From Bellilinea caldifistulae (GTDB lineage: Bacteria > Chloroflexota > Anaerolineae > Anaerolineales > Anaerolineaceae): 32,000 bases of DNA. Shown here piece by piece: positions 5,006 through 31,882 of this stretch. The position numbers were made by a program, and so were the translations under genes. The notes below the pieces were generated by a model, which saw nothing but the letters and a program-made list of their open reading frames with translations, ran no database searches and was not told the DNA's origin. Position 1 is the stretch's first letter, and every line of letters begins with the position of its first letter. Where the stretch lies: the NCBI RefSeq assembly GCF_001306055.1, contig NZ_LGHJ01000016.1, forward strand, positions 120,001-152,000, read 5' to 3'.

Positions 5006-6253
5006 ATGCCGACCAAAATCAGTCTTTATATACATATTCCCTTCTGCCGCCATCGGTGTGCCTATTGTGATTTCAATACCTACGCTGGTCAGGAGAGCCT
5101 GATACCGGCCTACCTCAAAGCGTTGCAGGCAGAAATTGAACAGGTGGCGGTAAAGTTAAACTTCCCCCACGAAATTGGTACGATATTTTTAGGGGGTGGA
5201 ACGCCATCCTACCTTCCGGTTGAGGGGTTGCGAGAAATTCTCAATACTTGTCGGCGAGTGTTCCCGATTAGGGATGATTGTGAAATCAGCATCGAGGCAA
5301 ATCCCGGAACAGTACATCGCGAGGGTTTGTCTGAATTGCGAAGGGCGGGGTTTAACCGGATCAGTATGGGGATGCAAAGTGCGAACATCCACGAGTTGAG
5401 ACTGCTGGAGAGAGAGCATGATCCGATTGCGGTCATCCAAGCCGTCGCATCGGCACGTCTGGCCGGGTTTGAAAATCTTAACCTCGATTTGATATTTGGT
5501 ATTCCCGGACAGACTATGGATAGCTGGAAGAAATCCATCCACTTTGCATTGGACTTGAAGCCAGATCACCTCTCACTTTATGCATTGACGATTGAACATG
5601 GAACGCCGTTCAAGAAATGGGTGGAGCGGGGTTTGATTAATGTACCGGATGATGATTTGGCGGCTGATCAATATGAATATGCCTGCCAGATACTGGAAGA
5701 AGCCGGGTTTGAGCATTACGAAATTTCTAATTGGGCGTTGAAAACCGGTGACCGGTCAAAAATGTGCCAACACAACCTTCAATACTGGCGTTACCTGCCC
5801 TATATCGGTGTGGGAGCAGGAGCGCATGGCTTTTTGGAAAACCATCGAACGGTTAATGTGAGGGGGATAAAAGCATATATTGATAGAATGAATTTTTCAG
5901 TAGAAATGCCCTTTCCGGCCTCTTCGGCGGCTGAACAGGTGGGTGAACTGGATTTGTGGACGCAAATGCAGGAAAAAATGATGGTGAGCCTTCGCTTGCT
6001 GAACGAGGGGGTCGAGGCGGCTTCTTTCGCTCAACGATTTGGAGTTGAGTTAGAGGAAGTATTTGGGGATCAAATTGCCAGGTTGACCAGGCAAGGTTTG
6101 CTGAAATGGGCAGGCAGCTCAGATCAGCGGCGTTTGCGTCTTACTCAGCAGGCATGGCTTTTGGCAAACCGTGTTTTTCGGGAGTTTATCGGCTTGAAAG
6201 AACCGCCAGTTTTCCGTAAAAATGCTCATTCGACCACAACGCGGGTGCCGTAA
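5006..6253 (+). CDS. hemW: Radical SAM heme chaperone HemW (coproporphyrinogen III oxidase-like)
   Basis: 415-aa ORF starting MPTKISLYIHIPFCRHRCAYCDF (CxxxCxxC), followed by GGGTPS and a HemN_C-like tail. Its 3' end overlaps the convergent L,D-transpeptidase gene by 28 bp. Confidence 0.85.
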   Translation: MPTKISLYIHIPFCRHRCAYCDFNTYAGQESLIPAYLKALQAEIEQVAVKLNFPHEIGTIFLGGGTPSYLPVEGLREILNTCRRVFPIRDDCEISIEANPGTVHREGLSELRRAGFNRISMGMQSANIHELRLLEREHDPIAVIQAVASARLAGFENLNLDLIFGIPGQTMDSWKKSIHFALDLKPDHLSLYALTIEHGTPFKKWVERGLINVPDDDLAADQYEYACQILEEAGFEHYEISNWALKTGDRSKMCQHNLQYWRYLPYIGVGAGAHGFLENHRTVNVRGIKAYIDRMNFSVEMPFPASSAAEQVGELDLWTQMQEKMMVSLRLLNEGVEAASFAQRFGVELEEVFGDQIARLTRQGLLKWAGSSDQRRLRLTQQAWLLANRVFREFIGLKEPPVFRKNAHSTTTRVP

Positions 6254-8260: not shown

Positions 8261-8338
<78 letters not shown>

Positions 8339-8396: not shown

Positions 8397-8804
8397 TTAT
8401 TTCTCGCCTTTGGATTCAAAAAAATTGGTGTAGGCTTTATCCTCATCGAGGATGTGGTTGACCAGCCACTCCTTCAAGAAATTCATCATCTGGACACTCA
8501 GGCCGATTTTGCCCTCCTTGTATTGATTTTTGTAATCCATTACTTGTTGAGTCAGGCGATCATGAGATTCCTTGTGTTGGGTGTATTGAGGATAAGCGTG
8601 CTTGAGCATGAGCGCCTCTTCACTGGAAAAATGCCTGCGAGTATAGTCAACCAGCTCGTCAAGTATTTTTCCCAATTCTACCTGGCCTTTACCGACCTTC
8701 ATGGCTTCGTATAGTTGATTGATCAAGTTGACCAGCTGCTGGTGTTGTTGATCAAATTTGGAAATTTTTACCGAATAACGATCTTCCCACTTAATCAGTG
8801 ACAT
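8397..8804 (-). CDS. Hemerythrin-like metal-binding protein (bacteriohemerythrin)
   Basis: The ORF track gives 8397..8870. I prefer the ATG at 8804 (MSLIKWEDRYSV...), preceded by AGGAGAACAAG. His/Glu/Asp ligand pattern: DQQHQQL, RRHFSSEE, HKESH, WLVNHILDEDK. Confidence 0.8.
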   Translation of the reverse strand: MSLIKWEDRYSVKISKFDQQHQQLVNLINQLYEAMKVGKGQVELGKILDELVDYTRRHFSSEEALMLKHAYPQYTQHKESHDRLTQQVMDYKNQYKEGKIGLSVQMMNFLKEWLVNHILDEDKAYTNFFESKGEK

Positions 8805-8888
8805 CTTGTTCTCCTGTTTGCAATTGTTCATGCTCATCTGAATATAGGGTTTTTGTTGATGGGTATCCATAAATTTGGAGTAAATTTT

Positions 8889-9626
8889 TTAGGGGACAAA
8901 GCCAATCGCATAAAACGTCGGTACGAATAAGACACGTGTTCCCTCCAGCCATGCATGGCGGTCGGCTTTTTCTAGTGCTTCGATTTCTTCGGGTTTGCAA
9001 TAATTTTCCAGGTCTGAGCGGATGACCGACCACTCAAGATCAATCTCCTGCGGATGAGGTTGATCTTTTGTCCATTGAGCAGCCATAACCCCGCTTTCGA
9101 TGTCAATTAACCCCGCCGTCTCGAACCAGGCACGAATTTTTCGACCGGTGAAGGGGTCTGCGCCTTGATCGCGTAATGATTGAATCTGATATTTTCCAAT
9201 CGCACTCAGGGAGGATGGATAATCTATCCTGCCGCCGTAATCCGGTTCAGCCATGGCGATCACCGCGCCACCGCTACGTGTGATGCGAATCATCTCTTGC
9301 AGGACATTTGCTCCATTGACCCACATCAGAAAAAAATGACAAAAGCAATAATCCATGCTCTTCGAGACAAACGGCAGGTAATGAGCATCTGAACAAATCA
9401 GTGAGGCGGATGGCAGCAAAGTCTGAGTGATTTGCAGGCTCGAGAAATCTATATCCAGTCCAAATATACCGTTTTCGCCTGAAAATTCTCGCAATACTGC
9501 GCCGCTACCGCAGCCAACTTCCAATACCCGATTTAAGGGTTGTATTCCGGCTTTTTGGATCAGGTATGCGCGTAGTTGAGCCGTCCACCGGGCCTGTTGT
9601 TGATAGCGTTGATGCCAGTCTATCAT
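8889..9626 (-). CDS. Class I SAM-dependent methyltransferase
   Basis: The ORF track gives 8889..9674. I prefer the ATG at 9626 (MIDWHQRY...), which overlaps the upstream stop as ATGA. Motif I is VLEVGCGSGAVL, with downstream acidic and post-I motifs. Confidence 0.8.
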   Translation of the reverse strand: MIDWHQRYQQQARWTAQLRAYLIQKAGIQPLNRVLEVGCGSGAVLREFSGENGIFGLDIDFSSLQITQTLLPSASLICSDAHYLPFVSKSMDYCFCHFFLMWVNGANVLQEMIRITRSGGAVIAMAEPDYGGRIDYPSSLSAIGKYQIQSLRDQGADPFTGRKIRAWFETAGLIDIESGVMAAQWTKDQPHPQEIDLEWSVIRSDLENYCKPEEIEALEKADRHAWLEGTRVLFVPTFYAIGFVP

Positions 9627-10810
9627 GCTTCGGTCTGATTCAATTTTTGAGCATTTTGCCAGATTGTTGCCCAATCATCGGTGAGGAAATTGCCAAGAAG
9701 AATGGTTTTACCTTGCGCAGGTAGTACATCTCCATCGGGTTCAACGTAAAGCCAGGCGTTGCCAGCGCCGTCAAAATATTCTGCCTGTCCTTCGGTTTGT
9801 AATTCAAGACCGATGGGGTTTAACTCGGAGTAAGGTACTGGTAAGTCCCATACAAGGGACATCTGGTGAGCAAACGCATGCTCCTGCGCTTGTTGAAGGA
9901 TGGGTTTCAAGGAAGGGTCTTCAATCGTAAGACTGAGCGATTTAACATTCAATTCTGCCAGTTTTTCAAGGATTTCGTTCAGCCGATTCTGATTACGAAC
10001 GGAAATGGTCAGATGAACCGTTACAAAAAGGTCAGATGCAATCGAATCTCGGATGGCTTCCCAGCAGTATTCTTCCTGTTCGTCCAGCACAATCATCAAA
10101 TGATCGAGACCTGCCTGAAGGATATCCGAAAGAAATTTATGCTCGGAGAAGCGGTATCCGCTGGTCAGCACACCGGTTACCATTCCTATCCTTTCGGCAA
10201 ATTCAACCAGTTCAATTAGATCGGGGCGTAAAGCCGGTTCACCGCCCGTGAATATCACATGTGGAATGCCAGCGTTCCATGCTTTTTCCAAAATGGTTTG
10301 CCATTCTTTGGTCAGCAATTCCCTCTTTACCCTTTCAAGCGGGGTAGAACCGGTGGTACGGGGGGTAGGGGTAGCATAAGTCAAGGCGCAATCCAGCCGT
10401 AGCGGAGCACTCAACCGACGCTCATGCACATTCACGCGGTCAAATTCCAGATATGTAACCGGATCGAGGTCGGTTGTTTCAATCAAAGTCATCAACCGGT
10501 CACGGAATGAGATGAAATCTTGCCGGACCTGTTCTTTGCTGACCCGATATCGTTTGGATAATTCACTGGCGACTTCTTCTTCAGTATGCTGCTGGATGAG
10601 GTGATAGGCGTACTCTGCCCCCGTCTGATTGAGGTGAAGCACCGTTGAGGCATTGAGGATGAGTACACCGCTCCCATCCCCCTCGATTCGGAGATGAAGA
10701 CGATAGGGAAAGGCGGCTTCGGGTGGGGCAATGAAAGTATAAATCCCCGCTTCCAGTGGTTGGACGGGTTGAAAAATGCGATTGATAGTCTCTCGAATTC
10801 GATTGAACAT
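9623..10810 (-). CDS. Cysteine-less paralog of the adjacent radical SAM/SPASM enzyme (RRE-like N-domain plus degenerate rSAM core; predicted non-catalytic)
   Basis: The ORF track gives 9623..10888. I prefer the ATG at 10810 (MFNRIRETI...), with GAGGTGG upstream. It aligns by eye with the neighbour: GIYTF/GLYSF, RLHLRIEGDGSGVLILNAS/RLHLRIESDQSGTLLINAS, GIPHVIFTGGEPALRPDL/GIPHIVFTGGEPTLRDDL, AGLDH. However, CNNACAHC is replaced by ATPTPRTTGS, and the SPASM cysteines are replaced (AWLYVEPDGDVLPAQ versus MCIEPDGSVLPCQ). Only 2 Cys occur in 395 aa. Confidence 0.8.
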   Translation of the reverse strand: MFNRIRETINRIFQPVQPLEAGIYTFIAPPEAAFPYRLHLRIEGDGSGVLILNASTVLHLNQTGAEYAYHLIQQHTEEEVASELSKRYRVSKEQVRQDFISFRDRLMTLIETTDLDPVTYLEFDRVNVHERRLSAPLRLDCALTYATPTPRTTGSTPLERVKRELLTKEWQTILEKAWNAGIPHVIFTGGEPALRPDLIELVEFAERIGMVTGVLTSGYRFSEHKFLSDILQAGLDHLMIVLDEQEEYCWEAIRDSIASDLFVTVHLTISVRNQNRLNEILEKLAELNVKSLSLTIEDPSLKPILQQAQEHAFAHQMSLVWDLPVPYSELNPIGLELQTEGQAEYFDGAGNAWLYVEPDGDVLPAQGKTILLGNFLTDDWATIWQNAQKLNQTEA

Positions 10811-10824
10811 GGCCACCTCTGCTT

Positions 10825-12201
10825 TTAGTGGATGACATTTGTTGGAGTTTGTAAAGATTCGCGGGCGAGAGGACATCCGCCACCACATTCAACCACTAAT
10901 GCACAATCGTGACATTTGGCGGGTAGATTTCGGCGTTCTCTAAGCGATTGTGCCAGCTCGTGATTCCAGATTTGATCCCACGAGTCGGTGATGATATTTC
11001 CCAACGAACTGTAATAGGATTGACAGGGAAGTACACTGCCATCCGGTTCAATGCACATGTTATAGAGCGCGGCAGTGCAGCCCTTAACACCCAATTCCAT
11101 TTGAACAGGGTCAAAATTGCAGTATTCGGTTGGGGTGTACCAGATTAGGCGTTGGTTGTTTTGGGCGGTTTTGGCGCGGGCAATTTCCAGCAGGGCGGGC
11201 AGTTGATTTTCCGGAATGCCACTATTGACATTTTTGCCACGCCCGGCGTAGATCAGAGCGTTTAATCCCACAGTAGGCACTCCAATTTCTGCCAGAAAAT
11301 CAAGTGTAGCGCTTAAATGAGGTGCATTGTCTTTCAGGAGAGTTGTGTTGGTCATCACAAAAAGCCTGGATTGTAGGGCATTTTTCAAACCATCGAGGGT
11401 TTCCTGCCATGCTCCCTTATGCAATACCATTCGATCGTGAATCTCTGGAATGTGGGACTCAAAAGTGATTTGCACATGATCCAGACCGGCGTCAATCAAT
11501 TGGGAGAGGAAAGAAACATCCTTCAAGCGTCTTCCGTTGGTGTTAATGCCGGTGATTTGTCCATTTTGTTCGGCATGAGCTATCAGCAAAGGCAGATCGT
11601 CGCGAAGGGTAGGCTCGCCTCCTGTAAACACAATATGAGGGATGCCGATTTCCCAAAGTTTATCCAAAACTGAATACCAGAATTGGGTATCTTTTTCTGG
11701 GAATGCACGTGACCGGGCGTTATAACAGTGAGCGCAGGCATTGTTGCACCGGTAAGTAATTGCCAGGTCCATGCGGTACGGCCGGCTGGGATGTTTTGTA
11801 AATGGCGGAATAGTTTCAATTTCCAAATCACAAACCGGACAAACGCCTTCCGGGTTGATCAATGAGCGGAGCTGTTCGACAAACGAAAGGTAGTCCTGAG
11901 TTGCCTGTTGACGGGAAACCTGAAATAACCGCGTCAGCCAGCCAATCGCCTGATGTTCAGGAATTTTACTCAAAGCAAGGTAGGCCATGAGCGCTGCCGA
12001 TGGGTTGAAATGATAAATGCGGCTGGCGTTGATCAGTAATGTTCCGCTCTGATCACTTTCAATGCGTAAATGAAGGCGGGCTTTTCCGCCATTCTCTTCA
12101 ATCAAAAAGGAGTAAAGGCCGGCTGGCGGTGGAAAATGAACTTCCGAGGAGGAAAAAGTTCTGCGCAATTTTTCAATCCAGCGGGTTGAGAGGAAAGACA
12201 T
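10825..12201 (-). CDS. Radical SAM/SPASM-domain enzyme with N-terminal PqqD/RRE-like domain
   Basis: The ORF track gives 10825..12276. I prefer the ATG at 12201 (MSFLSTRWIEK...), with AGGAG 8 nt upstream. The rSAM motif is ITYRCNNACAHCYN (Cx3Cx2C), with GGEP present. The SPASM pattern is GCTAALYNMCIEPDGSVLPC ... CHDCALVVECGGGC. The N-terminal roughly 110 aa resemble PqqD-like peptide-recognition domains. Confidence 0.88.
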   Translation of the reverse strand: MSFLSTRWIEKLRRTFSSSEVHFPPPAGLYSFLIEENGGKARLHLRIESDQSGTLLINASRIYHFNPSAALMAYLALSKIPEHQAIGWLTRLFQVSRQQATQDYLSFVEQLRSLINPEGVCPVCDLEIETIPPFTKHPSRPYRMDLAITYRCNNACAHCYNARSRAFPEKDTQFWYSVLDKLWEIGIPHIVFTGGEPTLRDDLPLLIAHAEQNGQITGINTNGRRLKDVSFLSQLIDAGLDHVQITFESHIPEIHDRMVLHKGAWQETLDGLKNALQSRLFVMTNTTLLKDNAPHLSATLDFLAEIGVPTVGLNALIYAGRGKNVNSGIPENQLPALLEIARAKTAQNNQRLIWYTPTEYCNFDPVQMELGVKGCTAALYNMCIEPDGSVLPCQSYYSSLGNIITDSWDQIWNHELAQSLRERRNLPAKCHDCALVVECGGGCPLARESLQTPTNVIH

Positions 12202-12215
12202 CCTGAATCTCCTGA

Positions 12216-13913
12216 TTACCGTCCACCGCCAGCACAGGCGCAAGCGCAGCCAGCGCAAGCGCAGGCACATGCACAACCTCCGCCCCCTCCTCCGGAACGC
12301 CCGCTATAAGAGGAGGGTTTGGGCGGTGGATTGGTCTTATTCGTGATCCTTTCTGTGAAGGTGTTGACATTGCCTAATACACCGCTAGAGAAGGACTGAA
12401 CGCCTTTGACCATGGAGGCAGCAAAGTCTGAACCGGGCAGTTTCGGTAGAGTGACGCTTCCACCGCCTGTAGGGGTCGGGATAGTGGTTTTTGCCATCCC
12501 GCCGCCACTGGTGGAAGGAGCACTGCGAATTACGGGATCGTAACGCCACCACCACGTGGGAACTCGCACCGGTCCGCTTTGGAAGACTTCCCGTGTTCGG
12601 TCATCCCAACGGCGATCAACCATCGTCCAATCCATGACCTGTTCATAGACATCCGACTTAACTTCGGGTGTTTCGGCGGCGGCAACCTGCTGCCAGGCTT
12701 TTTCCATGATGGTTTTGTAATAATCAATGGTTTCTTTGCGGCTAAAGCCTTTCATTTTTTCTGAAACCGATTTGATCAACCCAATGACGGTATCTTGAAG
12801 TTTCGCTTCTTTCAACTTTTTGTTGGTCTGCTTGAAAGCCTCCAGGAATGTCATCTCGTAGGGTTGGAGATTTTCGGGTAATGGATCACTGATTTTCAAG
12901 ACGAGCGGTTCCCGGCTTTCAACGATGGCAGCCCCTTTTTTCAACACTGAAAACAGGATCATGGTTAACACTTTATCGAGAGGCTGCTCCATCAGGACCG
13001 CGGCTTCTACGGCGGTCAAACCGCGTTTAATGCCATGGCCCTCAACCGCAATTTTGGGCGGCAAATATTGTAATTTGCGCCGATTTGCCGCTACAGCCGA
13101 TAAAATGGGGATAATGAAGAAAAATCCCACAAAGCCAGCTGTGCATAATGTACCAATGATCGCCTCAAAGTCAACTGTGCGAAGATTGGGCGTTTCGGTT
13201 GCGACAACCACCTGAGCAGGTACGAGACGAATGGGGAATGAAGCCCCAAATTTGTAAGGGGTATAGACGTTGGCTTTTTCAGCGTACCACGTGTAATAAA
13301 CCCGACCCTGGTTGTCAAAACCCGACTCGACCGGTTCATTGCTGCCCGGCCAGTTGCCGGATGGGGTATGGTAGCGGGGTTCTTCGGGTTTTAAACCGGT
13401 CGGTAGTACAATGGTGAAATAGTATTCGGTGGTACCGCGAGTGAAATTCCGGTCGAAATTATTTGGAGTAATAACCAGGCTGGCGTACTCTTCGGCTTCT
13501 TGCAGGGTGGATTTACCCAATGCGCGTTCGACTTTTCCAACGTACACATGCAGAGTTCCCGTTTGTCCAGGCTGGATGGCATTACTTCCCAAATGGATTT
13601 CAACACCCGGATTGACATACTCCGAAGGGCGGATGAGGGTGGCTGGCTTTCCGTCAATCTCGGCAGAAATGGATTTTAAGTCGTAGTTTGAATTGGGCAG
13701 ACCAATATCTACGATGTCAATCGCATCCCGGCCGGGCAGGTTTTTGAAGGTAATGGTGTAGTCGAGGCTTACGCTGCCATCTGAATTGACAAAAACAACC
13801 ACCTCTTGTTTGGGAACTTCAAAGGACAGATTTTGGGCATGGACAGGCTGGATGCTCATACCGAGCATCAATGCAATGATCAACCATAAGAAAAAGAGAC
13901 GAAGAGTTCGCAT
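12216..13913 (-). CDS. DUF2207-like membrane protein with C-terminal Gly6-(Cys-Ala)n tail
   Basis: The ORF track gives 12216..14048. I prefer the ATG at 13913 (MRTLRLFFLWLIIALMLGMSIQPVHAQ, a signal peptide), with GGGAGGGTGAG upstream. Layout: beta-rich N-domain, one central TM segment (IIGTLCTAGFVGFFFIIPILSAVAA), a roughly 285-aa predicted cytoplasmic region, then the tail ...SGRSGGGGGGCACACACAGCACACAGGGR*. Confidence 0.85.
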   Translation of the reverse strand: MRTLRLFFLWLIIALMLGMSIQPVHAQNLSFEVPKQEVVVFVNSDGSVSLDYTITFKNLPGRDAIDIVDIGLPNSNYDLKSISAEIDGKPATLIRPSEYVNPGVEIHLGSNAIQPGQTGTLHVYVGKVERALGKSTLQEAEEYASLVITPNNFDRNFTRGTTEYYFTIVLPTGLKPEEPRYHTPSGNWPGSNEPVESGFDNQGRVYYTWYAEKANVYTPYKFGASFPIRLVPAQVVVATETPNLRTVDFEAIIGTLCTAGFVGFFFIIPILSAVAANRRKLQYLPPKIAVEGHGIKRGLTAVEAAVLMEQPLDKVLTMILFSVLKKGAAIVESREPLVLKISDPLPENLQPYEMTFLEAFKQTNKKLKEAKLQDTVIGLIKSVSEKMKGFSRKETIDYYKTIMEKAWQQVAAAETPEVKSDVYEQVMDWTMVDRRWDDRTREVFQSGPVRVPTWWWRYDPVIRSAPSTSGGGMAKTTIPTPTGGGSVTLPKLPGSDFAASMVKGVQSFSSGVLGNVNTFTERITNKTNPPPKPSSYSGRSGGGGGGCACACACAGCACACAGGGR

Positions 13914-13927
13914 CTCACCCTCCCGGC

Positions 13928-14290
13928 TTACCATTTCGGTTCCTCGGTCAACTGATAGGTTGTGTGACAGTAAGGGCAGGTGACTACGGGCGCTCCGGCG
14001 ACCATTTTGATGTCTTCCGGCTTTAAAGTTCCACCACAGGAACGACATTTGATGGCATCCATATTTACATTTCCGGGCAGATCAATTTTCAGAGTAACGT
14101 TGGTTTCGTCGGGTTTGGCTGATTTTCGCGTAGCCAAGAATACCAGCGCTAAGCCAATCCCCACCGTTATAACCCCAATCGGAATCCAACCCAATGAACC
14201 CTGATCGCCGGTAGAACCCCAGATGAACAACACCCCGAAAAAGATCAAAATTCCGCCGACGATCAAAGCAATAATTTTCCATGCGCTCAT
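13928..14290 (-). CDS. Small membrane protein (2 TM) with C-terminal zinc ribbon
   Basis: The track start at 14302 is TTG. I prefer the ATG at 14290 (MSAWKIIALIVGG...), preceded by GGAGGTGACC. There are two hydrophobic helices, then CRSCGG...CPYCHTTY. Confidence 0.75.
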   Translation of the reverse strand: MSAWKIIALIVGGILIFFGVLFIWGSTGDQGSLGWIPIGVITVGIGLALVFLATRKSAKPDETNVTLKIDLPGNVNMDAIKCRSCGGTLKPEDIKMVAGAPVVTCPYCHTTYQLTEEPKW

Positions 14291-14311
14291 GGTCACCTCC
14301 AATCAAAATTC

Positions 14312-14340
14312 AGTGTAACATTTTCCAAAGGGGATGACAA
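14312..14340 (-). promoter_or_regulatory. Candidate operon promoter: -35 TTGTCA, 17-nt spacer, extended -10 TGtTACACT
   Basis: The reverse strand reads TTGTCAtcccctttggaaaaTGtTACACTgaattttgattGGAGGTGaccATG. The geometry places the TSS about 15 nt upstream of the first gene. Confidence 0.45.
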
Positions 14341-14438: not shown

Positions 14439-17702
<3,264 letters not shown>

Positions 17703-17742: not shown

Positions 17743-17758
17743 TGGAGAGGTGGAGATG

Positions 17759-18141
17759 GCGGGAATCGAACCCGCGTCCGAAAGATTAGACCCACGAACC
17801 TCTACGAGCGTAGTTGGTCTTTGTTCTCACGGTGGATGCGCTGACCAACAGAACACATCCACCGCCAGCCGCTCGGACCCGAAAGTCCTCTTTCGCATTC
17901 TGCACGGCGAAGAATGCGGCAGCCTGACTTTGTCACGCCTGTTCTGCTACCGGTCAGGCAGCGGAGCAGACAGACGTGGCCTCACGAGGAGACCATTTGC
18001 GCTCAGCTCGGCTTAGGCAGCCAGAGGAAGAGCAGCGTAGTTTGTGCGATTGGCACTTATTTTTTGTGCTGATTTTACGAGGTCCGCACCTCTCGGCTCG
18101 CAGTCCGGGATCAGCCTCTCCCGTCGAGACCGTTCATCCCC
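17759..18141 (-). ncRNA. ssrA: tmRNA (ssrA), one-piece
   Basis: The reverse strand 5' end reads GGGGATGAACGGTCTCGACGGGAG. The 3' end reads GGACGCGGGTTCGATTCCCGCCATCTCCACC, a tRNA-Ala-like T-arm and acceptor. The internal tag frame at 18054..18013 follows AAAAAATAAGT and reads GCC AAT CGC ACA AAC TAC GCT GCT CTT CCT CTG GCT GCC TAA, giving ANRTNYAALPLAA*. Confidence 0.9.
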
Positions 18142-23785: not shown

Positions 23786-23792
23786 GTTGCTG

Positions 23793-23866
23793 TGGGCGGA
23801 ACAGGACTCGAACCTGCGACCCCATCCTTGTAAGGGATGTGCTCTAACCTACTGAGCTATCCGCCA
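23793..23866 (-). tRNA. tRNA-Val (anticodon TAC), with U1 opposite C72
   Basis: The reverse strand reads TGGCGGA-TA-GCTC-AGTAGGTTA-GAGC-A-CATCC-CTTACAA-GGATG-GGGTC-GCAGG-TTCGAGT-CCTGT-TCCGCCC-A. It is a good cloverleaf except that the first acceptor pair is T:C. Confidence 0.8.
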
Positions 23867-24199: not shown

Positions 24200-24598
24200 C
24201 TATTTCTCTTTTAACGCACTTCGAGCCGGTTTTGTTGCCCGGCTCGGTGTGGATGAGGGTGGTTTTTTGTCTTTTTGGCGTTCTGTCTTGAAGCGCAGAA
24301 GTTCTAGTATTTCCTGACGCTCATCGGGGGAAAGTTGCGAAAGGTAGTGAAAGAACTGCTCTTGATACTCAGTATCTGGCGAAACCGGCGGAAGCAGACC
24401 GGCGGCACGGAAGACGGTTTCGGGGGGTAGATTCAGCGCGCGAGAGATGGACACTAAAACGTCACTATCTGGCTTCTCTCTTTGTCTATTGATGTAATTG
24501 CTAATAATTTGTCTAGGAATACCTGCCCGTCTAGCCAATTCAGCCTGTGACCACCCTCGTTTATTTATTTCATTCAATAGCCAATCTGAAAAGTCCAT
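24200..24598 (-). CDS. XRE-family helix-turn-helix repressor (CI-like; no S24 peptidase domain)
   Basis: 132 aa with the HTH RGWSQAELARRAGIPRQIISNYINRQREKP. The C-terminal region is helical and basic. It is divergent from the early operon. Confidence 0.85.
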   Translation of the reverse strand: MDFSDWLLNEINKRGWSQAELARRAGIPRQIISNYINRQREKPDSDVLVSISRALNLPPETVFRAAGLLPPVSPDTEYQEQFFHYLSQLSPDERQEILELLRFKTERQKDKKPPSSTPSRATKPARSALKEK

Positions 24599-24612
24599 AA
24601 CTGATTACAGTT

Positions 24613-24704
24613 TGTCATAATTTGCGTATTTTTTGGATGTCAAACCGTAAACACGTATTGACAATTTGTTTATATTTCTGTATAATGTCATCAAGCGTTG
24701 ACAT
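24613..24704. promoter_or_regulatory. Operator array of TGTCA/TGACA half-sites in the repressor/early-operon intergenic region
   Basis: TGTCA occurs at 24613, 24638 and 24686; TGACA occurs at 24659 and 24699. An inverted repeat ATGTCA-N8-TGACAT at 24685-24704 overlaps the -10 and TSS of the rightward promoter. Confidence 0.55.
24658..24686 (+). promoter_or_regulatory. Consensus sigma70-type early rightward promoter: TTGACA, 17 nt, TATAAT
   Basis: TTGACA at 24658-24663, a 17-nt spacer (atttgtttatatttctg), and TATAAT at 24681-24686. The RBS AAAGGAGG and the ATG at 24726 follow. Confidence 0.75.
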
Positions 24705-24725
24705 TTAGAAAACAAAGGAGGTCAA

Positions 24726-24929
24726 ATGCCGGACTTTTACATCAGGACAAGCGATCAAGAGGTTGAACGCATGCTGAAACAGTTGGCTGAAGAAGACATG
24801 CGCTCGATTTCAATGGAGGTAGCTTGGCTCATCCGCCAGGAATGGGCGCGCCGGTACTCGCAGCCAAATCCGGCAATTTCGGTGGCGGATGCAATGCTGG
24901 CGAGCGAAGAGGTCAAGAAGGGGGAATAG
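24726..24929 (+). CDS. Small early protein, possible ribbon-helix-helix (Arc/CopG-like) regulator
   Basis: 67 aa and the first gene after the consensus promoter, with a strong RBS. An N-terminal beta-strand-like FYIRTS followed by two helices (EVERMLKQLAEEDMRSISMEVAWLIRQEW) fits the RHH pattern. Confidence 0.6.
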   Translation: MPDFYIRTSDQEVERMLKQLAEEDMRSISMEVAWLIRQEWARRYSQPNPAISVADAMLASEEVKKGE

Positions 24930-25136
24930 ATGAATACAACCATTATTCAATCCCTGAACACAATTGAAGACCTCATTGAATCCGCGCGCAAGATGGTGGA
25001 TTATGGCGAATATACCCACGACCCGGAAGGCTTCACCGCCGCCAGGAGTGCTTTGAACCAAGCGATTACGCACATATCCGAGGTGAAACAATCTCTCAAA
25101 TCCATCCATGAAGCCATTGTACAGGAGCGCGTATGA
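24930..25136 (+). CDS. Hypothetical phage protein
   Basis: 68 aa. The start directly abuts the upstream stop, and GGGGGA lies upstream. Confidence 0.55.
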   Translation: MNTTIIQSLNTIEDLIESARKMVDYGEYTHDPEGFTAARSALNQAITHISEVKQSLKSIHEAIVQERV

Positions 25137-25450
25137 CATGCGAAATTCGGCTGGATTACGGCGTGATTACGGCGGTCTTGCTTGGGCTGTTGTTGTTCGG
25201 CATTGGCTACAACAGCCTCGTGGCATGGCTGGAACGCCGGGGCTACACCGAGGGCTTCTTGAGCCTGATTGTGGCTTTCGGCGTAGCCATGACGCTGGCT
25301 GGCGTTGCGATACTGAGTATCCATGCTGCACTGCTGACCCTGCTGGCATTTGTAGCCACCGGTACGCCGATGATTGTTGGCTCCATTGTGCGATACCTGC
25401 GCCGGCGGGATGAGGCAAAGCGGGCAATGCTGGATGAGGTTAAACGATGA
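25133..25450 (+). CDS. Hypothetical phage membrane protein (3 TM)
   Basis: 105 aa with an ATGA overlap, AGGAG upstream and three hydrophobic helices. Confidence 0.6.
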   Translation: MTCEIRLDYGVITAVLLGLLLFGIGYNSLVAWLERRGYTEGFLSLIVAFGVAMTLAGVAILSIHAALLTLLAFVATGTPMIVGSIVRYLRRRDEAKRAMLDEVKR

Positions 25451-25656
25451 CCAAACCGCGTGAGTGGCCTAACAGCGCGAAGGAAGCGCGAGACCGGAGC
25501 GCAGAGGAAGCCATCCGGGCTTTGCGGGCCATTGAGCCATTGCTGGAAAAGGAGGTGACCGAAATAGAAAGAGTACGCAGACTGGCTATTGCGATACACG
25601 CACTACAAACCATCCTGCGTCTTCTGGAACGGGAAGGCGCGCAGACAAGACCGTAG
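25447..25656 (+). CDS. Hypothetical phage protein
   Basis: 69 aa with an ATGA overlap. It is helical and charged. Confidence 0.55.
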   Translation: MTKPREWPNSAKEARDRSAEEAIRALRAIEPLLEKEVTEIERVRRLAIAIHALQTILRLLEREGAQTRP

Positions 25657-25671
25657 AAAGGAGAAAAGATT

Positions 25672-25902
25672 ATGCCGATGAGTTGGAGTACTGAGTATGG
25701 CTTGCGGCGCGCAATTCGAAGTGGCGATGAAGAACACATTGAGGAATTGCTTCACCGCAACAGATTTGTCGATTTCGACGAGGTAAAGCAAATTTTCGAG
25801 GACGAGCGCAAAGGACGCATTCGTCCGATTGGAAACATTGAATACGGCGATCTGGAAATCCGCGATAAGTTTGGCCGACCTGATGTGCGGCGGAGGTGTT
25901 AA
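25672..25902 (+). CDS. Hypothetical phage protein
   Basis: 76 aa, with AGGAGAAAAGATT upstream of the ATG. Confidence 0.55.
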   Translation: MPMSWSTEYGLRRAIRSGDEEHIEELLHRNRFVDFDEVKQIFEDERKGRIRPIGNIEYGDLEIRDKFGRPDVRRRC

Positions 25903-26196
25903 GTGGAATACAGAAAAATCTATACCCAGTGTGGATGGGTGTACTTGGAGGAAAAACCAATGACGCTGGACGAAATTGTTGAAATCATCGGCGACGCACT
26001 TGAAGATGCGTATCCACACCGTTCACTAAAGTTCGCTGCCATGTACTTGATTGCTGAGTACGAGCGGCGGCTTCTGCCCGACTGGATCGAGGCGCTGGCA
26101 AACGGAAATCTGGACGTGTGGGATGCGGTGTTAGACGAAGTGCGAAACCTGAAGAAGGCGGAGGAAATGGAAAATGACAACTATGACGATGTCTAA
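25903..26196 (+). CDS. Hypothetical phage protein (start ambiguous: GTG 25903 or ATG 25960)
   Basis: The GTG at 25903 has GGAGGTG 6 nt upstream. The ATG at 25960 has GGAGGAAAAACCA upstream. Confidence 0.5.
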   Translation: MEYRKIYTQCGWVYLEEKPMTLDEIVEIIGDALEDAYPHRSLKFAAMYLIAEYERRLLPDWIEALANGNLDVWDAVLDEVRNLKKAEEMENDNYDDV

Positions 26197-26512
26197 TTCA
26201 AAAACCCTCTCGCCGTACCCGATCGTCCTGACGCTGATTGTCATCACTATGGCGGTATTGTCATACCACGCCATAGCCAAACACGGATCAGCAGCATACG
26301 CCGCTTCACAGTGCGCCGACAGCCCGGAGGTGCGCATGATCAACCCAATGAACGGAAGAGTTGCGTACATTTGCTGGACTGAGCGCGGCTGGGGGGTGTA
26401 TATCCAAGCGCCCGATGGGACGAACGTGACCGCGTTTGTCAAGGAGAAGTTGAAAAAACTGGCAGACGTTATTCGCTACATGCGGAACACCGGCTACGAA
26501 CTTTTGCAATAA
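26174..26512 (+). CDS. Hypothetical phage protein with N-terminal membrane anchor
   Basis: 112 aa with a hydrophobic segment (YPIVLTLIVITMAVLSY) and GGAGGAAATGGAAA upstream. Confidence 0.55.
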   Translation: MTTMTMSNSKTLSPYPIVLTLIVITMAVLSYHAIAKHGSAAYAASQCADSPEVRMINPMNGRVAYICWTERGWGVYIQAPDGTNVTAFVKEKLKKLADVIRYMRNTGYELLQ

Positions 26513-26514
26513 AA

Positions 26515-26537
26515 AACCGCCCTGTGCGGGGGCGGTT
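26515..26537. terminator. GC-rich hairpin with the T-run on the minus strand only
   Basis: aaaaaaccgccc-tgtgcgg-gggcggtt. An A-run precedes it on the plus strand, so it reads as hairpin plus U-tract only in the antisense direction. Confidence 0.4.
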
Positions 26538-26594
26538 CAGTCCACCGTGGACAGTGGACCCAGGTAATCCCATTATATCACGAAAGGAGAAAAA

Positions 26595-26924
26595 ATGGTT
26601 GAAAATCGTGGACAAAAATATTTAGACCCAGGTGAAGCAAGCCGGGTGCAAAACCATTATGTTTGTGCGGTTTGCTGGGGCCACCTGATGAGCTTTTACA
26701 GGGTCGAAGAAGGCAAGCCGCCCTATGTCGAAGTGGTGTGCGCCCGCGCGGTTGACGGGAAGTGCAGCGGCACAACCTTTGTGACCAAAGCGTATGCCGA
26801 ACGCCGGCGGCAGGAATCACAGGCAGAGCTTTGGGAAGCGCGCGCCAATTTGCGGGAAATTTTAGACCTGCCGCAGTCTGGCAAGACGGCAGACGAATTG
26901 ATTGACGAGTTATTCGGAGGGTAA
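26595..26924 (+). CDS. Hypothetical phage protein with Cys-rich (CxxC...C...C) segment
   Basis: 109 aa with AGGAGAAAAA upstream. The Cys-rich segment is HYVCAVCWGH...VVCARAVDGKCSG. Confidence 0.55.
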   Translation: MVENRGQKYLDPGEASRVQNHYVCAVCWGHLMSFYRVEEGKPPYVEVVCARAVDGKCSGTTFVTKAYAERRRQESQAELWEARANLREILDLPQSGKTADELIDELFGG

Positions 26925-26925
26925 G

Positions 26926-28236
26926 ATGCCAATTGCAGGATTGACCGACCGCGGGCTGGCTTTTCCACAGATCGGCGTTATCCGCAAGGGAGCGCCGAAA
27001 GGTGAAAAATCCCCCGGCAGGGATTTGACATACTTCCGTGTGGAATTCGATGCCAGCCGGCCGGATTTGAAAGAAAAATTCGAGTCATATTACGGCCCGC
27101 AGCCGCGCCGCTTGAATGTAGTCTTTCCGTTCAACGACTTTGACCGCCAGGTTAGCATCTGGTATGAAGCCTACAACAAAGGACGCATGGTAGCGCGGGC
27201 CGGGACGGTGGCCGGATTGGACCCGGCCAGAAATTACTATCTTTTCAAAGCCGATCCGCGCAACGGTGAAGTGCTGGCAAAGGACGGGTACTGGTTATCG
27301 TCCGGTGAGCCGGCGGAATACGACAAGAGCACGCCGGAATACACCATGACCTACACCGGTAAGGACGGCAAAACCAGACAACTGCCCGTGTACTGCAAGC
27401 CGATCACCCGGGTCAAACTGGTGATCCGCGAGCTACGCGAGATGGCGTATGTCTTACTGCGCTCATCCAGTATCTACGATGCGATCAACATCAGCGAGCA
27501 GCTGCTGGCATTGTGGGAATTGACCGGCCACCGCTGGGCCGGTGTGCCGTTGATTGTGTCGCGCAAACCGGTGCAGATCATGTGCCCGGATGAGAACGGC
27601 AATCGCACCTATCGGGAAAAATGGCTGGTGCAGTTCCAGGCCGATCCGTTATGGAGCGAGCAGAAACTGCTGGGCATGAACGCTGAAGCCCTGCGGCTGG
27701 CCTCTGGTGTGGTAGATGCCAGCAGAGCCATAGCCGCCTTGCCGACCGGGATACAGGCAGACGAAGATGATGAAGATGAAGATTACATCGAAGCGGAAGA
27801 ACCCGATGGCTGGGAGGTGAACGCACCAGAAGTGGAGGAAGCGGATGAGGTCATCGAACCGCAGCCGGTCGTTGTGAGCGGGAAAACCAACGGTGCGCGT
27901 CCTTATCCGCCGGAACAGTTGAAAAGTCATCTGTTTGAAGCGGCGGAGAAACTACCGGAAGCAAGCGCGAAGATGATTTCCGAGGTGGCGGCCACGTTGG
28001 AATACATCTATATGTCGAAGGACAAGCGGCAGATGTTTCTTAACTGGTTGTGCGGGAAGGAATCGCTGCGCGAGACGGATAAACAATTGACGGCAGCGCT
28101 GCACAGATGGCTTAAGCCGCAATATTCAAATCAAGCGACTGCATACATCCCTCAGGATGAACACGCCGCAGCGGAGGCAAATGCTGCGCTTGAACAGTAT
28201 CTGGCGGAGACTGGGCAGGAAAAATTGCCGATTTAG
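26926..28236 (+). CDS. 436-aa phage early protein of unknown function with an acidic central/C-terminal region
   Basis: The ORF track gives 26902. I prefer the ATG at 26926, after GGAGGGTAAG. The N-terminal motif IGVIRKGAPKG...DLTYFRVEF and a later block (VKLVIRELREMAYVLLRSSSIYD...GVPLIVSRKPVQI) vaguely recall phiC31 gp3-type RDF-like phage proteins. This is from memory and unverified. Confidence 0.65.
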   Translation: MPIAGLTDRGLAFPQIGVIRKGAPKGEKSPGRDLTYFRVEFDASRPDLKEKFESYYGPQPRRLNVVFPFNDFDRQVSIWYEAYNKGRMVARAGTVAGLDPARNYYLFKADPRNGEVLAKDGYWLSSGEPAEYDKSTPEYTMTYTGKDGKTRQLPVYCKPITRVKLVIRELREMAYVLLRSSSIYDAINISEQLLALWELTGHRWAGVPLIVSRKPVQIMCPDENGNRTYREKWLVQFQADPLWSEQKLLGMNAEALRLASGVVDASRAIAALPTGIQADEDDEDEDYIEAEEPDGWEVNAPEVEEADEVIEPQPVVVSGKTNGARPYPPEQLKSHLFEAAEKLPEASAKMISEVAATLEYIYMSKDKRQMFLNWLCGKESLRETDKQLTAALHRWLKPQYSNQATAYIPQDEHAAAEANAALEQYLAETGQEKLPI

Positions 28237-28308
28237 TCTTTGCCAGCGTCGGCGGCGAGCCTCCCGCACGCCGAGCCGGATAGCGTAACCGGCATTCTGG
28301 AGGAAATT

Positions 28309-28536
28309 ATGCGCATCAAAACATTTGACACCGGCACGCAATTCGCTGATTGGCGTCATCGAAACTGTGAGCGGTGCGCGCTCAGATGGAGAGACAACCG
28401 ATACTTCTGCCTCATCGAGCGCGCGCTCGATGAAGCGTACATTGGAGATGGCTATGTAGATGATGATATCGCGGCGCGAATGGGATACAGCGATACTGAG
28501 TATACCTGGGACTGTCCAGAAAGGATAACAAGATGA
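28309..28536 (+). CDS. Hypothetical phage protein
   Basis: The ORF track gives 28240. I prefer the ATG at 28309 (MRIKTFDTG...), after GGAGGAAATT. Confidence 0.5.
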   Translation: MRIKTFDTGTQFADWRHRNCERCALRWRDNRYFCLIERALDEAYIGDGYVDDDIAARMGYSDTEYTWDCPERITR

Positions 28537-28570
28537 TCGAGCTATTGAAACGCTGCAAGCAAAGGAAATC

Positions 28571-28648
28571 ATGGAGAAATTCTATACGCCAGGCAACCCT
28601 GCCGTGAAAATTGAATTCAAAAATAACAAGGAGGAACTATGTATCTAA
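28571..28648 (+). CDS. Possible 25-aa micro-ORF
   Basis: ATG preceded by AAGGAAATC. It reads MEKFYTPGNPAVKIEFKNNKEELCI* and overlaps the next start. It is below the ORF-track size cutoff. Confidence 0.25.
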   Translation: MEKFYTPGNPAVKIEFKNNKEELCI

Positions 28649-29145
28649 TTCGCTCTATCGCATCACCCGAAACCGCCATTTGCATCACGGAGGAACAACT
28701 GGAGGAAATACGCCAGATGGTCAAAGAGGTTTGCAGGATGTTAAAAAGAGCCAAACTCCCTATAACGGACGTCCAAATGCCGTTCGATAATCGCGAGTAT
28801 TACAACGTCCCTTCGATTGGACTACCAGAACACAATCGCAACAAACTTTATCGCGACTGGTTCTGCGAAATTTCCGAGAAACCCTCCGCGGGGATGGAAT
28901 TTCGCGGCGTTTTTTTACAGTATGGCATATTTACTGATGACAATAAACGTATTGAGTCGGTGAAGGTAAAACCTTACGTTTGCGCTTACCACAAGGAAAA
29001 CGAGCAATACAAGGCAAATTATTTTGAGTTGCCGGAGGAATTACTGCAAACACGAAGAAACGGCAGAAAACTCCAGAAAAATACGGCGGGCGATGTGGTG
29101 GGGACACGCAACTGTCGGCGAGTATTGGATGCCACGCGGGAATGA
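28639..29145 (+). CDS. Hypothetical phage protein
   Basis: 168 aa with AAGGAGGAACT upstream. Confidence 0.6.
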   Translation: MYLIRSIASPETAICITEEQLEEIRQMVKEVCRMLKRAKLPITDVQMPFDNREYYNVPSIGLPEHNRNKLYRDWFCEISEKPSAGMEFRGVFLQYGIFTDDNKRIESVKVKPYVCAYHKENEQYKANYFELPEELLQTRRNGRKLQKNTAGDVVGTRNCRRVLDATRE

Positions 29146-29175
29146 CATACTCATCAAAAAGCCGACTCCCCGCAA

Positions 29176-29203
29176 TCGGGTTCAAATCCCGACCCGCCGA
29201 CTA
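29176..29203 (+). other. tRNA-like T-arm plus acceptor 3' fragment
   Basis: TCGGG-TTCAAAT-CCCGA-CC-CGCCGAC-TA. The T-loop is canonical. CGCCGAC is complementary to GTCGGCG at 29114-29120, but no D-arm or anticodon arm can be drawn in between. Confidence 0.45.
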
Positions 29204-29230
29204 ATAAAAACGCAGCAAAAGGAGGAAAAC

Positions 29231-29326
29231 ATGAAGTTCGATTACTCAGAAATAATACCCCAAAAGGAGGCAGTGATGACGATGAGCCGGCTGGGTGTCA
29301 GTGGATTTGGAGTACTGCCGGAATGA
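29231..29326 (+). CDS. Small 31-aa phage ORF
   Basis: AAAGGAGGAAAAC then ATG. It reads MKFDYSEIIPQKEAVMTMSRLGVSGFGVLPE* and overlaps the next gene as ATGA. Confidence 0.45.
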   Translation: MKFDYSEIIPQKEAVMTMSRLGVSGFGVLPE

Positions 29327-29691
29327 GCGACTATATCTCGTTGCAGCCTGGACTTGAGCGCGCCGTACTGCGCGTGCTGGACAACTACCGCGGAAGAACG
29401 AACGCCATCGGGCGCAATGAATTGACTGCGCTGGTAAAGCGTCTGGGATACCCGACCAGCGAGCGGCAGGTTAGAGAAGCAATCAAGCAGTTGCGGCGGC
29501 AGGGGCATTTGATTTGCTCCGCTCCCGGCGATGATGGCGGGTACTACATCGCTGAAGATATGGCGGAATACCAGGAATTTCGGCGGATTGAGTACGCAGC
29601 AAAGATAAACGACATGATGGAAACTCTGCGGGCGATGGATGATGCAGCGAAAGCGGCGTTTGGCGACAGCGTCCAGATGCGGTTGTGGTGA
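29323..29691 (+). CDS. Probable winged-helix DNA-binding phage protein
   Basis: 122 aa. The segment LRVLDNYRGRTNAIGRNELTALVKRLGYPTSERQVREAIKQLRRQGHLICS resembles a wHTH. Confidence 0.55.
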   Translation: MSDYISLQPGLERAVLRVLDNYRGRTNAIGRNELTALVKRLGYPTSERQVREAIKQLRRQGHLICSAPGDDGGYYIAEDMAEYQEFRRIEYAAKINDMMETLRAMDDAAKAAFGDSVQMRLW

Positions 29692-29698
29692 GGGTGGA

Positions 29699-31455: not shown

Positions 31456-31643
31456 AATTCTTAATCGAAAAAAACTTGTGTCCGGTGGGCGAAGAGATTG
31501 AACGTGATCTGGACGACCTGCTGGCCAAACAGCGCATCGAGCCGACGGCCGAGCGCAGTCACGAAATCCACAAGTTGATCAAGTTGTATTTTCGGCATCG
31601 CAAAGAATGTTTTGACTGCAAAGTACAGATCAGGGTGAGATGA
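31452..31643 (+). CDS. Hypothetical phage protein
   Basis: 63 aa with an ATGA overlap. Confidence 0.5.
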   Translation: MKFLIEKNLCPVGEEIERDLDDLLAKQRIEPTAERSHEIHKLIKLYFRHRKECFDCKVQIRVR

Positions 31644-31873
31644 GCATCAATAATCAGAATCAAATCTTCTTTTGCGGATATGTGATGTTCCCGGGTGTGG
31701 ATGTGAACGAGTACTGGGATTTTGTGCGCAAATCCATGCCGATTCGGGACGTCAAAAACGGGCTTGAGATGGGCATATTTCCGCCGGGGCTGGTTATGAA
31801 GGATGATTACAACAATCTTGCGATTGTGGATCGCGACCGGCGGACGTTGAGAAAACTATCCTGGTGGGTATAG
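31640..31873 (+). CDS. Hypothetical phage protein
   Basis: 77 aa with an ATGA overlap and AGGGTGAG upstream. Confidence 0.5.
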   Translation: MSINNQNQIFFCGYVMFPGVDVNEYWDFVRKSMPIRDVKNGLEMGIFPPGLVMKDDYNNLAIVDRDRRTLRKLSWWV

Positions 31874-31882
31874 GAGGCAGAA

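Follow-up and report, generated by a model that had tools for sequence, protein, structure and literature searches.

The subject of this analysis is a cassette of five genes on the chromosome of Bellilinea caldifistulae, contained in a stretch of 32,000 nucleotides that is referred to here, as a whole, as the window. The cassette encodes a large membrane protein with a Cys-Ala repeat at its C terminus, a radical S-adenosylmethionine (SAM) enzyme with a SPASM domain, a paralog of this enzyme that has lost its cluster ligands, a methyltransferase, and a small zinc-ribbon membrane protein. It points to a protein modification not previously described, for which the repeat tail of the membrane protein is probably the substrate. 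A preliminary description of this DNA had placed the five genes back to back on the minus strand, with a hemerythrin gene 84 nucleotides further on, and all six open reading frames (ORFs) lie as placed. Exact protein matches are WP_061915923.1, WP_061915921.1, WP_061915919.1, WP_061915917.1, and WP_061915911.1.

The genes are arranged head to tail, with intergenic gaps of 14, 14, 14, and -4 nucleotides. Each of the three 14-nucleotide gaps contains a Shine-Dalgarno-like site, and at the last junction the methyltransferase ATG and the paralog TGA overlap in the sequence ATGA. The layout thus fits a single translationally coupled operon. A promoter-like site, TTGTCA-N17-(TG)TACACT (14312..14340, minus strand), is located 5′ of the first gene and matches at 9 of 12 positions, with an extended -10 TG. 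The element is present where it had been reported, but such matches are not enriched over shuffled sequence (9 found in the region versus 8.7 expected). Statistical significance was therefore not retained for it, and its position is the one feature that makes it a plausible promoter.

The first gene (13928..14290, minus strand) starts with an ATG that follows a GGAGG site. Its 120-residue product, labeled a hypothetical protein by NCBI, has the two hydrophobic helices and the CxxC...CxxC pattern expected of the two-transmembrane zinc-ribbon protein described earlier, and ends in TEEPKW. The C4 zinc ribbon is predicted to lie in the cytoplasm; Pfam zinc-ribbon matches are weak. The gene is kept 5′ of the tail-protein gene in most loci and is a core component of the cassette.

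The second gene (12216..13913, minus strand) encodes the 565-residue single-pass membrane protein that ends in GGGGGGCACACACAGCACACAGGGR. The AlphaFold2 model has a predicted local distance difference test (pLDDT) score of 76, rising above 90 in the ectodomain. In the modeled order, a signal peptide precedes a β-sandwich (residues 31-227, pLDDT >90) and one transmembrane helix (249-281, with the hydrophobic stretch at 252-276). The helix is followed by NRRK and by a cytoplasmic part that consists of a helical, winged-helix domain (300-465), two helices (494-527), and a disordered tail. Since a signal peptide and a single transmembrane helix are followed by NRRK, a cytoplasmic location is predicted for the tail, as had been proposed. 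Such a location is compatible with the tail being a substrate because radical SAM enzymes work in the cytoplasm.

Three segments make up the C-terminal region. A leader-like segment, LPKLPGSDFAAS...FTERITNKTNPPP (residues 489-531; 12321..12449, minus strand), is the proposed docking site for a RiPP recognition element (RRE; RiPP, ribosomally synthesized and post-translationally modified peptide). It is followed by a Ser/Gly-rich linker, KPSSYSGRSGGGGGG (residues 532-546; 12276..12320, minus strand), and by the core tail, CACACACAGCACACAGGGR (residues 547-565; 12219..12275, minus strand), which is the proposed substrate.

Searches of Pfam, NCBIfam, and PDB sequences gave nothing above threshold for the membrane protein. 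The profile searches suggested in the preliminary description detected Radical_SAM and SPASM in the enzyme; the membrane protein itself has no Pfam DUF2207 match and scores 16.3 bits against TIGR04222, where the cut-off is 43. DUF2207_C is weakly detectable in 10 of 62 homologs (best E-value 0.0023), UniRef labels the Bellilinea protein DUF2207, and the homolog from a Heimdallarchaeota genome has no Pfam match. Foldseek matches of the model are led by ribophorin I and include the N-domain of M1 aminopeptidases. Homology to ribophorin I was rejected, as the template-modeling (TM) score of 0.27 and the root-mean-square deviation of 21 Å indicate likeness of topology only.

The third gene (10825..12201, minus strand) encodes the radical SAM/SPASM enzyme of 458 residues, with matches to PF04055 (1.2e-23) and PF13186 (5.4e-12). 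The CX3CX2C motif at residues 152-159 (Cys152, Cys156, and Cys159) is present in all 75 orthologs compared, and each of the seven SPASM cysteines between residues 361 and 443 (Cys361, Cys375, Cys393, Cys430, Cys433, Cys439, and Cys443) in at least 96% of them, so that the earlier assignment of both motifs is borne out. The AlphaFold2 model (pLDDT 74, predicted TM score 0.75) displays strands and three helices at residues 28-115, and this, with the fold alignments, sustains the N-terminal PqqD/RRE-like domain (about residues 28-115) that had been proposed. The best full-length fold matches are SkfB (E 1.6e-14, TM score 0.70), SuiB, and CteB, in alignments that span 410-470 columns; SkfB and PqqE are the best PDB sequence matches. 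Although 67 NCBIfam radical SAM models matched, none reached its cut-off for the enzyme or its paralog. Scores for NirJ2 (119 bits, cut-off 500), PqqE (110, cut-off 381), and GeoRSP (97.5, cut-off 400) are all far below.

The paralog (395 residues; 9623..10810, minus strand) is 32% identical to the enzyme. Every cluster-ligand cysteine is gone, and the C-terminal CX2CX5CX3C is truncated or lost, but the RRE domain and a GGEP motif are kept. Its PqqD score of 29.2 bits exceeds the Pfam cut-off of 23.4, and the NCBI label is 'PqqD family peptide modification chaperone'. A role without catalysis, as a chaperone or scaffold, is probable.

The last gene of the cassette (most likely 8889..9626, minus strand) encodes a class I SAM methyltransferase of 245 residues (Methyltransf_11, 6e-15), which agrees with the earlier assignment. 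This methyltransferase is a core component, present in bacterial and archaeal cassettes alike. In a profile built from 14 orthologs, the best PDB relative is the lanthipeptide methyltransferase LahSB (3.3e-24). Assignment of the methyl acceptor by analogy with LahSB was rejected, the Rossmann-core match being too generic.

Conservation of the tail and its linkage to the enzyme

The tail is conserved far beyond chance. A similarity search with the whole protein found CACACACAGCACACAGGGR invariant or nearly so in all of the best 120 homologs (52-100% identity), every one of which ends in ...CACACA(CA)GCACACAGGGR. No other stretch is as well conserved among 77 full-length proteins from many phyla, and the preliminary description, which had made tail conservation among orthologs a test of its reading, is upheld from Anaerolineae to Asgard archaea. 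An exhaustive profile search with the membrane protein returned 1116 clusters at 50% identity, 428 of them with E ≤1e-30. Of the 150 best cluster representatives, 109 end in the canonical tail and 11 in CxCxCx variants, of which CVCACANCACVCACVSCACACASGG exemplifies the predominant three-block form; the remainder are fragment-like. All synonymous codons are in use among 76 tails, where third-position identity is 0.42; such free synonymous variation implies selection on the peptide rather than on the DNA. The linker preceding the tail varies in sequence and is always Gly/Ser-rich. The carrier proteins have 520-680 residues, and conservation extends to their ectodomain and cytoplasmic domain.

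In one subfamily (P0339, P0341, P0347-P0349, P0381, and P0388) there are three Cys-X blocks, in which 10-11 cysteines are counted and Val often takes the place of Ala. Its members end in GGGAR, GGAG, or GGVG rather than GGGR.

Linkage between tail and enzyme was assessed in both directions. In the forward direction a DNA pattern back-translated from CACACAGGGR and a stop codon was searched in one genome per species and gave at least 120 loci. The scan needs the last ten tail residues and is blind to divergent tails, for which the similarity searches compensate. Each genome bin is a fixed 8-kb slice, and the counts that follow refer to the listed matches. Every tail ORF long enough for judgment is a homolog of the membrane protein. 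Most loci belong to Anaerolineae, and other bacterial loci come from Planctomycetota, Acidobacteriota, Aminicenantes, Hydrogenedentes, Sabulitectum, Zixibacteria, Coatesbacteria, and more. Archaeal loci are found in Methanomassiliicoccales, Thermoplasmatota, Thermococci, and Heimdall-, Hod-, and Promethearchaeota, thus including Asgard archaea.

An enzyme homolog is encoded in 97 of the 120 tail-seeded bins, usually starting 0-150 nucleotides past the tail stop codon. Of the 23 bins that lack one, 7 have short downstream DNA and 10 are T2-type loci whose upstream DNA is truncated, which are uninformative because the enzyme gene lies upstream in that type of cassette; 6 are real orphans. One orphan (L032) shares its metagenome-assembled genome with a complete cassette (L084). 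At L118 (724-3280) and L086 (3186-5848) a methyltransferase gene directly follows the tail gene, and the bin holds no radical SAM gene; the tail at L118 is a variant, CACACACDSCACACAGGGR. The tail-protein gene is duplicated at L096 (1-3482), L058 (4441-8000), L104, and L108, the two copies being in tandem or near each other. At L022 (Polyangiaceae) an apparent fusion of enzyme and substrate, 1152 residues long, was set aside, as it is probably a high-GC extension of the ORF over a separate upstream paralog ORF.

The reverse scan was made in metagenomes and was seeded with the enzyme alignment alone. It kept 80 loci with 56-90% identity, and so covers enzyme orthologs (at least 56% identity) rather than the whole superfamily. 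Upstream DNA is available at 75 of these loci, and in 75 of 75 a tail gene is found upstream: at less than 400 nucleotides in 65 cases and at 580-1700 nucleotides in 9, with 1 GGSR variant. This survey of gene neighborhoods had been called for in the preliminary description, which named beforehand, among the outcomes contrary to its reading of the tail as a substrate, two that sequence data can reveal: enzymes usually lacking a tail-bearing neighbor, and a tail not conserved among orthologs. Both were looked for and neither occurred, so that the substrate reading gains support from sequence comparisons.

These data bear on the suggestion that the tail is nothing more than low-complexity sequence such as occurs in DUF2207 or TIGR04222 proteins and that the adjacent radical SAM gene is incidental. 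Distant similarity to DUF2207_C and TIGR04222 speaks for it, as does the fact that members of these families are often Gly-rich at the end (PMC12452194). It is already contradicted, however, by the two-way gene linkage and by a 19-residue tail that is nearly invariant across phyla even though its synonymous sites vary. Fewer than one chance match to the DNA pattern would be expected in the whole collection searched (an estimate, from about 46 bits), as against the at least 120 loci found. We regard this explanation as extremely improbable.

Comparison of the loci identifies a conserved core composed of the zinc-ribbon protein, the tail protein, the radical SAM enzyme, and the methyltransferase. 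In Anaerolineae the order is zinc-ribbon protein, tail protein, enzyme, cluster-less paralog, and methyltransferase. The archaea and several bacterial phyla have a similar cassette minus the paralog, and in Heimdallarchaeota a divergent two-transmembrane zinc-ribbon gene adjoins the tail gene. The paralog had been described as sharing the architecture of the enzyme but none of its cluster ligands. That is correct for Bellilinea, but the gene is not universal: it is confined to cassettes of the Anaerolineae type and is absent from archaeal and many bacterial ones.

The T2 type of cassette has the tail CACACAG-CACACACAGGGR and the order zinc-ribbon protein, enzyme, a different RRE-bearing paralog, tail protein, and methyltransferase. 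This second kind of paralog has lost CX3CX2C and kept the C-terminal SPASM cysteines, and its PqqD/RRE match is above the Pfam cut-off. In a quick neighbor-joining tree, calculated without support values, the T2 enzymes form a separate group that mixes Planctomycetota, Hydrogenedentes, and Anaerolineales. The segment just before the tail differs correspondingly, with the motif FGDVA.SF.GW.ENTMG...LSG.DK.TG in T2 and LPG(S/A)DFAAS...FT..(I/V)T..TNP.P in the T1/T3 type. Tail type and pre-tail segment thus co-vary with enzyme clade across phyla, as expected from co-evolution of enzyme and substrate through contact between the RRE and a leader, and we infer from these sequences that the leader-like segment may be the RRE docking site.

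At two loci, L076 and L111, a T1-type tail gene and paralog are accompanied by an oppositely oriented enzyme gene of the T2 clade.

Proposed maturation of the tail

We consider it probable that the cassette encodes a protein-embedded, RiPP-like maturation system whose product is retained on the membrane protein, and at least as probable that the radical SAM enzyme has the tail as its substrate. Within the operon and flanking intergenic DNA of the window there is no short Cys-rich ORF, and no conventional short precursor in the window, as the preliminary description had implied. In the proposed mechanism the signal peptide would insert the 565-residue protein in the membrane with its β-sandwich outside, and the helical domain, the Gly/Ser linker, and the (Cys-Ala)n tail would face the cytoplasm. 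The enzyme would dock, through its N-terminal RRE, on the conserved segment that immediately precedes the linker, and the cluster-less paralog of the Anaerolineae would use its own RRE to dock there as well. The enzyme would then cleave SAM reductively and modify the tail cysteines. The likeliest products would be intramolecular thioethers that join a Cys sulfur to a carbon of a neighboring or cross-strand Ala or Gly, and such cross-links would convert the two Cys-Ala blocks to a rigid laddered hairpin. Thioether formation is favored over other chemistries because two of the three nearest solved folds form Cys thioethers and because the core is all Cys, Ala, and Gly, but it is an assignment by analogy that we hold only tentatively, at clearly less than even odds. 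The tail is probably methylated as well, with the methyltransferase adding at least one methyl group; as acceptor we infer the C-terminal carboxylate or the remaining thiols. The two-transmembrane zinc-ribbon protein may be the membrane partner of the complex.

The product of this maturation would be a protein-derived group that stays on the membrane protein rather than a released peptide. A different fate can be imagined, in which the tail serves as a scaffold for a small product, a cofactor or a secreted RiPP, that is made and then cut off, as PQQ is from PqqA and mycofactocin from MftA. PqqE is among the closest relatives of the enzyme in both sequence and fold, and the residues to be modified would lie at the extreme C terminus, as they do in MftA. 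However, no conserved peptidase or exporter gene was found around the cassette in bacteria or archaea, nor a further conserved tailoring gene, and release of the product is disfavored in consequence. A carrier of 520-680 residues with conserved domains is also unlike a disposable leader, and the PqqE and mycofactocin models score far under their NCBIfam cut-offs. Excision of a small product is unlikely in our judgment, slightly more so than any other explanation considered here except incidental low complexity.

Several observations weigh against modification of the tail by the enzyme, or against the chemistry proposed for it. The alternating CxC motifs are typical of metal-thiolate proteins too, and the replacement of Ala by Val in some clades would also fit a structural role of the repeat as β-strand. 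The PqqD match of the enzyme, at 21.2 bits, falls short of the Pfam cut-off of 23.4. The nearest folds, from which the chemistry is extrapolated, are only 14-20% identical to the enzyme, and its top NCBIfam scores are for tetrapyrrole-modifying enzymes and PqqE, not for sactisynthases. The match of the methyltransferase to LahSB is confined to the generic Rossmann core. Finally, the orphan tail genes (L006, L009, L032, L036, L052, and L118) have no enzyme gene in their 8-kb bins.

Much of this evidence would suit an unmodified tail that binds a metal or an iron-sulfur cluster, with its alternating cysteines aligned on one face of a β-hairpin in the manner of metallothionein. The enzyme and the methyltransferase would then act on another substrate, a small molecule or lipid, and the membrane protein would be a partner or scaffold. 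With two blocks that hold 6-8 cysteines, or three that hold 10-11, the CxC repeats resemble metal-thiolate motifs, and changes from Ala to Val are tolerated in the tail; the best-scoring NCBIfam models are of cofactor-modifying enzymes, the radical SAM core also resembles that of the lipid-modifying GDGT-MAS, and some tail genes have no enzyme gene adjacent. Against these points, the enzyme and both kinds of paralog have RRE domains, which bind peptides and favor a peptide substrate; the enzyme gene starts within about 150 nucleotides of the tail stop codon in most loci; and the enzyme clade co-varies with the tail type and the pre-tail motif. In archaea, lipid bridging is the work of Gms, for which a COG4001 domain is the defining feature and whose gene clusters with tes/mss genes (PMC11214058). 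That gene content is unlike the one seen in the cassette, and identity of the cassette enzyme with Gms was rejected because neither the domain nor the neighbors fit. On balance an unmodified metal-binding tail seems improbable, though a little less so than a tail that is cut off.

Beyond modification as such, the tail might mature to a protein-derived prosthetic group: a methylated β-hairpin, laddered by thioethers or holding metal thiolates, at the cytoplasmic end of a membrane protein that resembles ribophorin I and DUF2207 proteins, with a redox, metal-handling, or signaling function not yet described. We advance this as a speculation that is more likely wrong than right and less secure than the thioether chemistry itself. 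If it is correct, membrane-anchored proteins with RiPP-like modifications and a two-transmembrane zinc-ribbon partner of their own would form a new class, and a protein widespread in anaerobic Bacteria and Archaea, Asgard archaea among them, would gain such a function.

Members of the family occur in Chloroflexota, Planctomycetota, several candidate phyla, Methanomassiliicoccales, and Asgard archaea. For a motif of 19 residues to be identical over such a range is rare and implies a precise chemical or structural role. Radical SAM/SPASM maturases with an RRE are known almost only for small peptides, and here such an enzyme is tied to the tail of a large membrane protein. Solving the system would reveal a new class of substrate, and probably a new pattern of modification, for RiPP-like chemistry. 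It would also provide a first functional handle on DUF2207-like proteins and explain a core gene set of the Anaerolineae, which are dominant in anaerobic digesters. The proposal is directly testable, since B. caldifistulae has been cultured and the tail falls on one predicted tryptic peptide, SGGGGGGCACACACAGCACACAGGGR.

Genomic setting of the cassette

The hemerythrin gene that follows the cassette (8397..8804 in the form annotated by NCBI, minus strand) encodes a bacteriohemerythrin (NF033749, 1e-47). The preliminary description was right about its presence 84 nucleotides downstream, but the neighbor is not conserved with the cassette: no hemerythrin gene lies beside it in L001, L002, or the 120 tail-seeded loci. 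Hemerythrin was therefore rejected as a component. Directly after this gene is tRNA-Pro(GGG) (8263-8338, minus strand), preceded by the strongest σ70-like match of the region, TTGCCA-17-TATAAT (8380-8352, 11 of 12 positions).

On the other side, genes for LigA and a PUA-domain methyltransferase (14468-17702, plus strand) flank the cassette divergently. The same flanks are seen in a distant Anaerolineae genome (L001, 2197-5536), which places the cassette in conserved core-genome synteny and not on an island.

Other features of the window are farther away. Another, unrelated gene for a radical SAM protein (HemN/HemW type, with PF04055 and HemN_C; 5006-6253, plus strand) lies 6 kb from the cassette. 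A tmRNA gene (17749-18141, minus strand; Rfam 180 bits) specifies the tag peptide ANRTNYAALPLAA. The gene for tRNA-Val(TAC) (23792-23866, minus strand) is followed by a prophage-like block at about 24200-32000, which includes an XRE-type repressor (24200-24598), a phrog_2113 protein, a replication-initiation or DnaD-like protein (29639-30550), and a DnaC-like loader (30409-31455). The AT skew shifts to between +0.1 and +0.23 from about 25 kb onward.

Comparison with known maturation systems

The preliminary description did not recognize this combination of genes as a described system, and neither do the databases consulted here: no Pfam or NCBIfam model was found that covers it, public annotations are generic, and the literature search found no paper with the tail motif, with a pairing of DUF2207 and radical SAM, or with one of Cys-Ala and SPASM. 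Its parts do have relatives among systems of known or proposed function, and the comparison helps to define what is distinctive about the cassette.

The closest enzymes are the maturases of the sporulation killing factor (SkfB), of SCIFF or ranthipeptides (CteB), and of streptide (SuiB). The cassette enzyme has the defining domains and the gene neighborhood of RRE-fused radical SAM/SPASM maturases. As in these three, an N-terminal RRE, a CX3CX2C radical SAM core, and a SPASM domain with auxiliary-cluster cysteines are combined, and the enzyme gene adjoins a gene with a conserved C-terminal Cys motif. The candidate substrate is what differs, being the tail of a membrane protein of about 560 residues rather than a peptide of 40-60 residues. 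The strict (Cys-Ala)n repeat, the lack of a protease or exporter, and the two-transmembrane zinc-ribbon partner are further differences. Scores for the sactipeptide and SCIFF families (StsB 83, cut-off 625; SkfB 76, cut-off 300; GDL/trio 75, cut-off 592) remain below the family cut-offs, and where sactipeptide and ranthipeptide loci have a short Cys-rich precursor, the sole Cys-rich C terminus here is on the 565-residue membrane protein.

The cofactor pathways of PqqE and mycofactocin are set apart by score (PqqE 110, cut-off 381; MftC 73, cut-off 265) and by neighborhood, as genes for PqqA-D or MftA-F are not among the neighbors. Pairing of an active enzyme with a ligand-less paralog has precedents in HxsB/HxsC of the His-Xaa-Ser system, in GeoRSP, and in the TIGR04347 pseudo-SAM/SPASM proteins, and the presumed target in the Hxs case is a short repeated motif. 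These systems, too, have other partner genes and targets, and their models score low (HxsC 72, cut-off 268; GeoRSP 97.5, cut-off 400; TIGR04347 111, cut-off 525).

Maturation of whole proteins by SPASM enzymes is exemplified by QhpD, which acts on QhpC, and by anSME, which acts on sulfatases. In both, and in the proposal made here, cysteines of a functional protein are targeted and the product stays in the protein. Their substrates, however, are subunits of enzymes, soluble or periplasmic, whose motifs are unrelated, whereas ours would be the repeat tail of a membrane protein; anSME moreover has no RRE and is a weaker fold match (about rank 26, E about 1e-8).

The membrane protein is comparable to DUF2207 proteins in its signal peptide, extracytoplasmic β-rich domain, transmembrane segment, cytoplasmic region, and low-complexity C terminus. 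It differs in having one transmembrane helix after the ectodomain, a Cys-Ala tail, and linkage to a radical SAM gene.

The nearest published idea concerns the TIGR04222 membrane proteins, for which gene linkage alone has suggested modification by MNIO (DUF692) enzymes (PMC12452194). No DUF692 gene is among the neighboring genes scanned here. Common to both proposals are a full-size membrane protein, a Cys-bearing low-complexity C terminus, and a modification like that of a RiPP core. The TIGR04222 tails are irregular in their Ser, Gly, and Cys residues, are predicted to be periplasmic, occur mostly in Actinomycetota, and are loosely linked to the enzyme (PMC12452194). The cassette, in contrast, has a radical SAM/SPASM enzyme, tight linkage, and a nearly invariant repeat that is predicted to be cytoplasmic.

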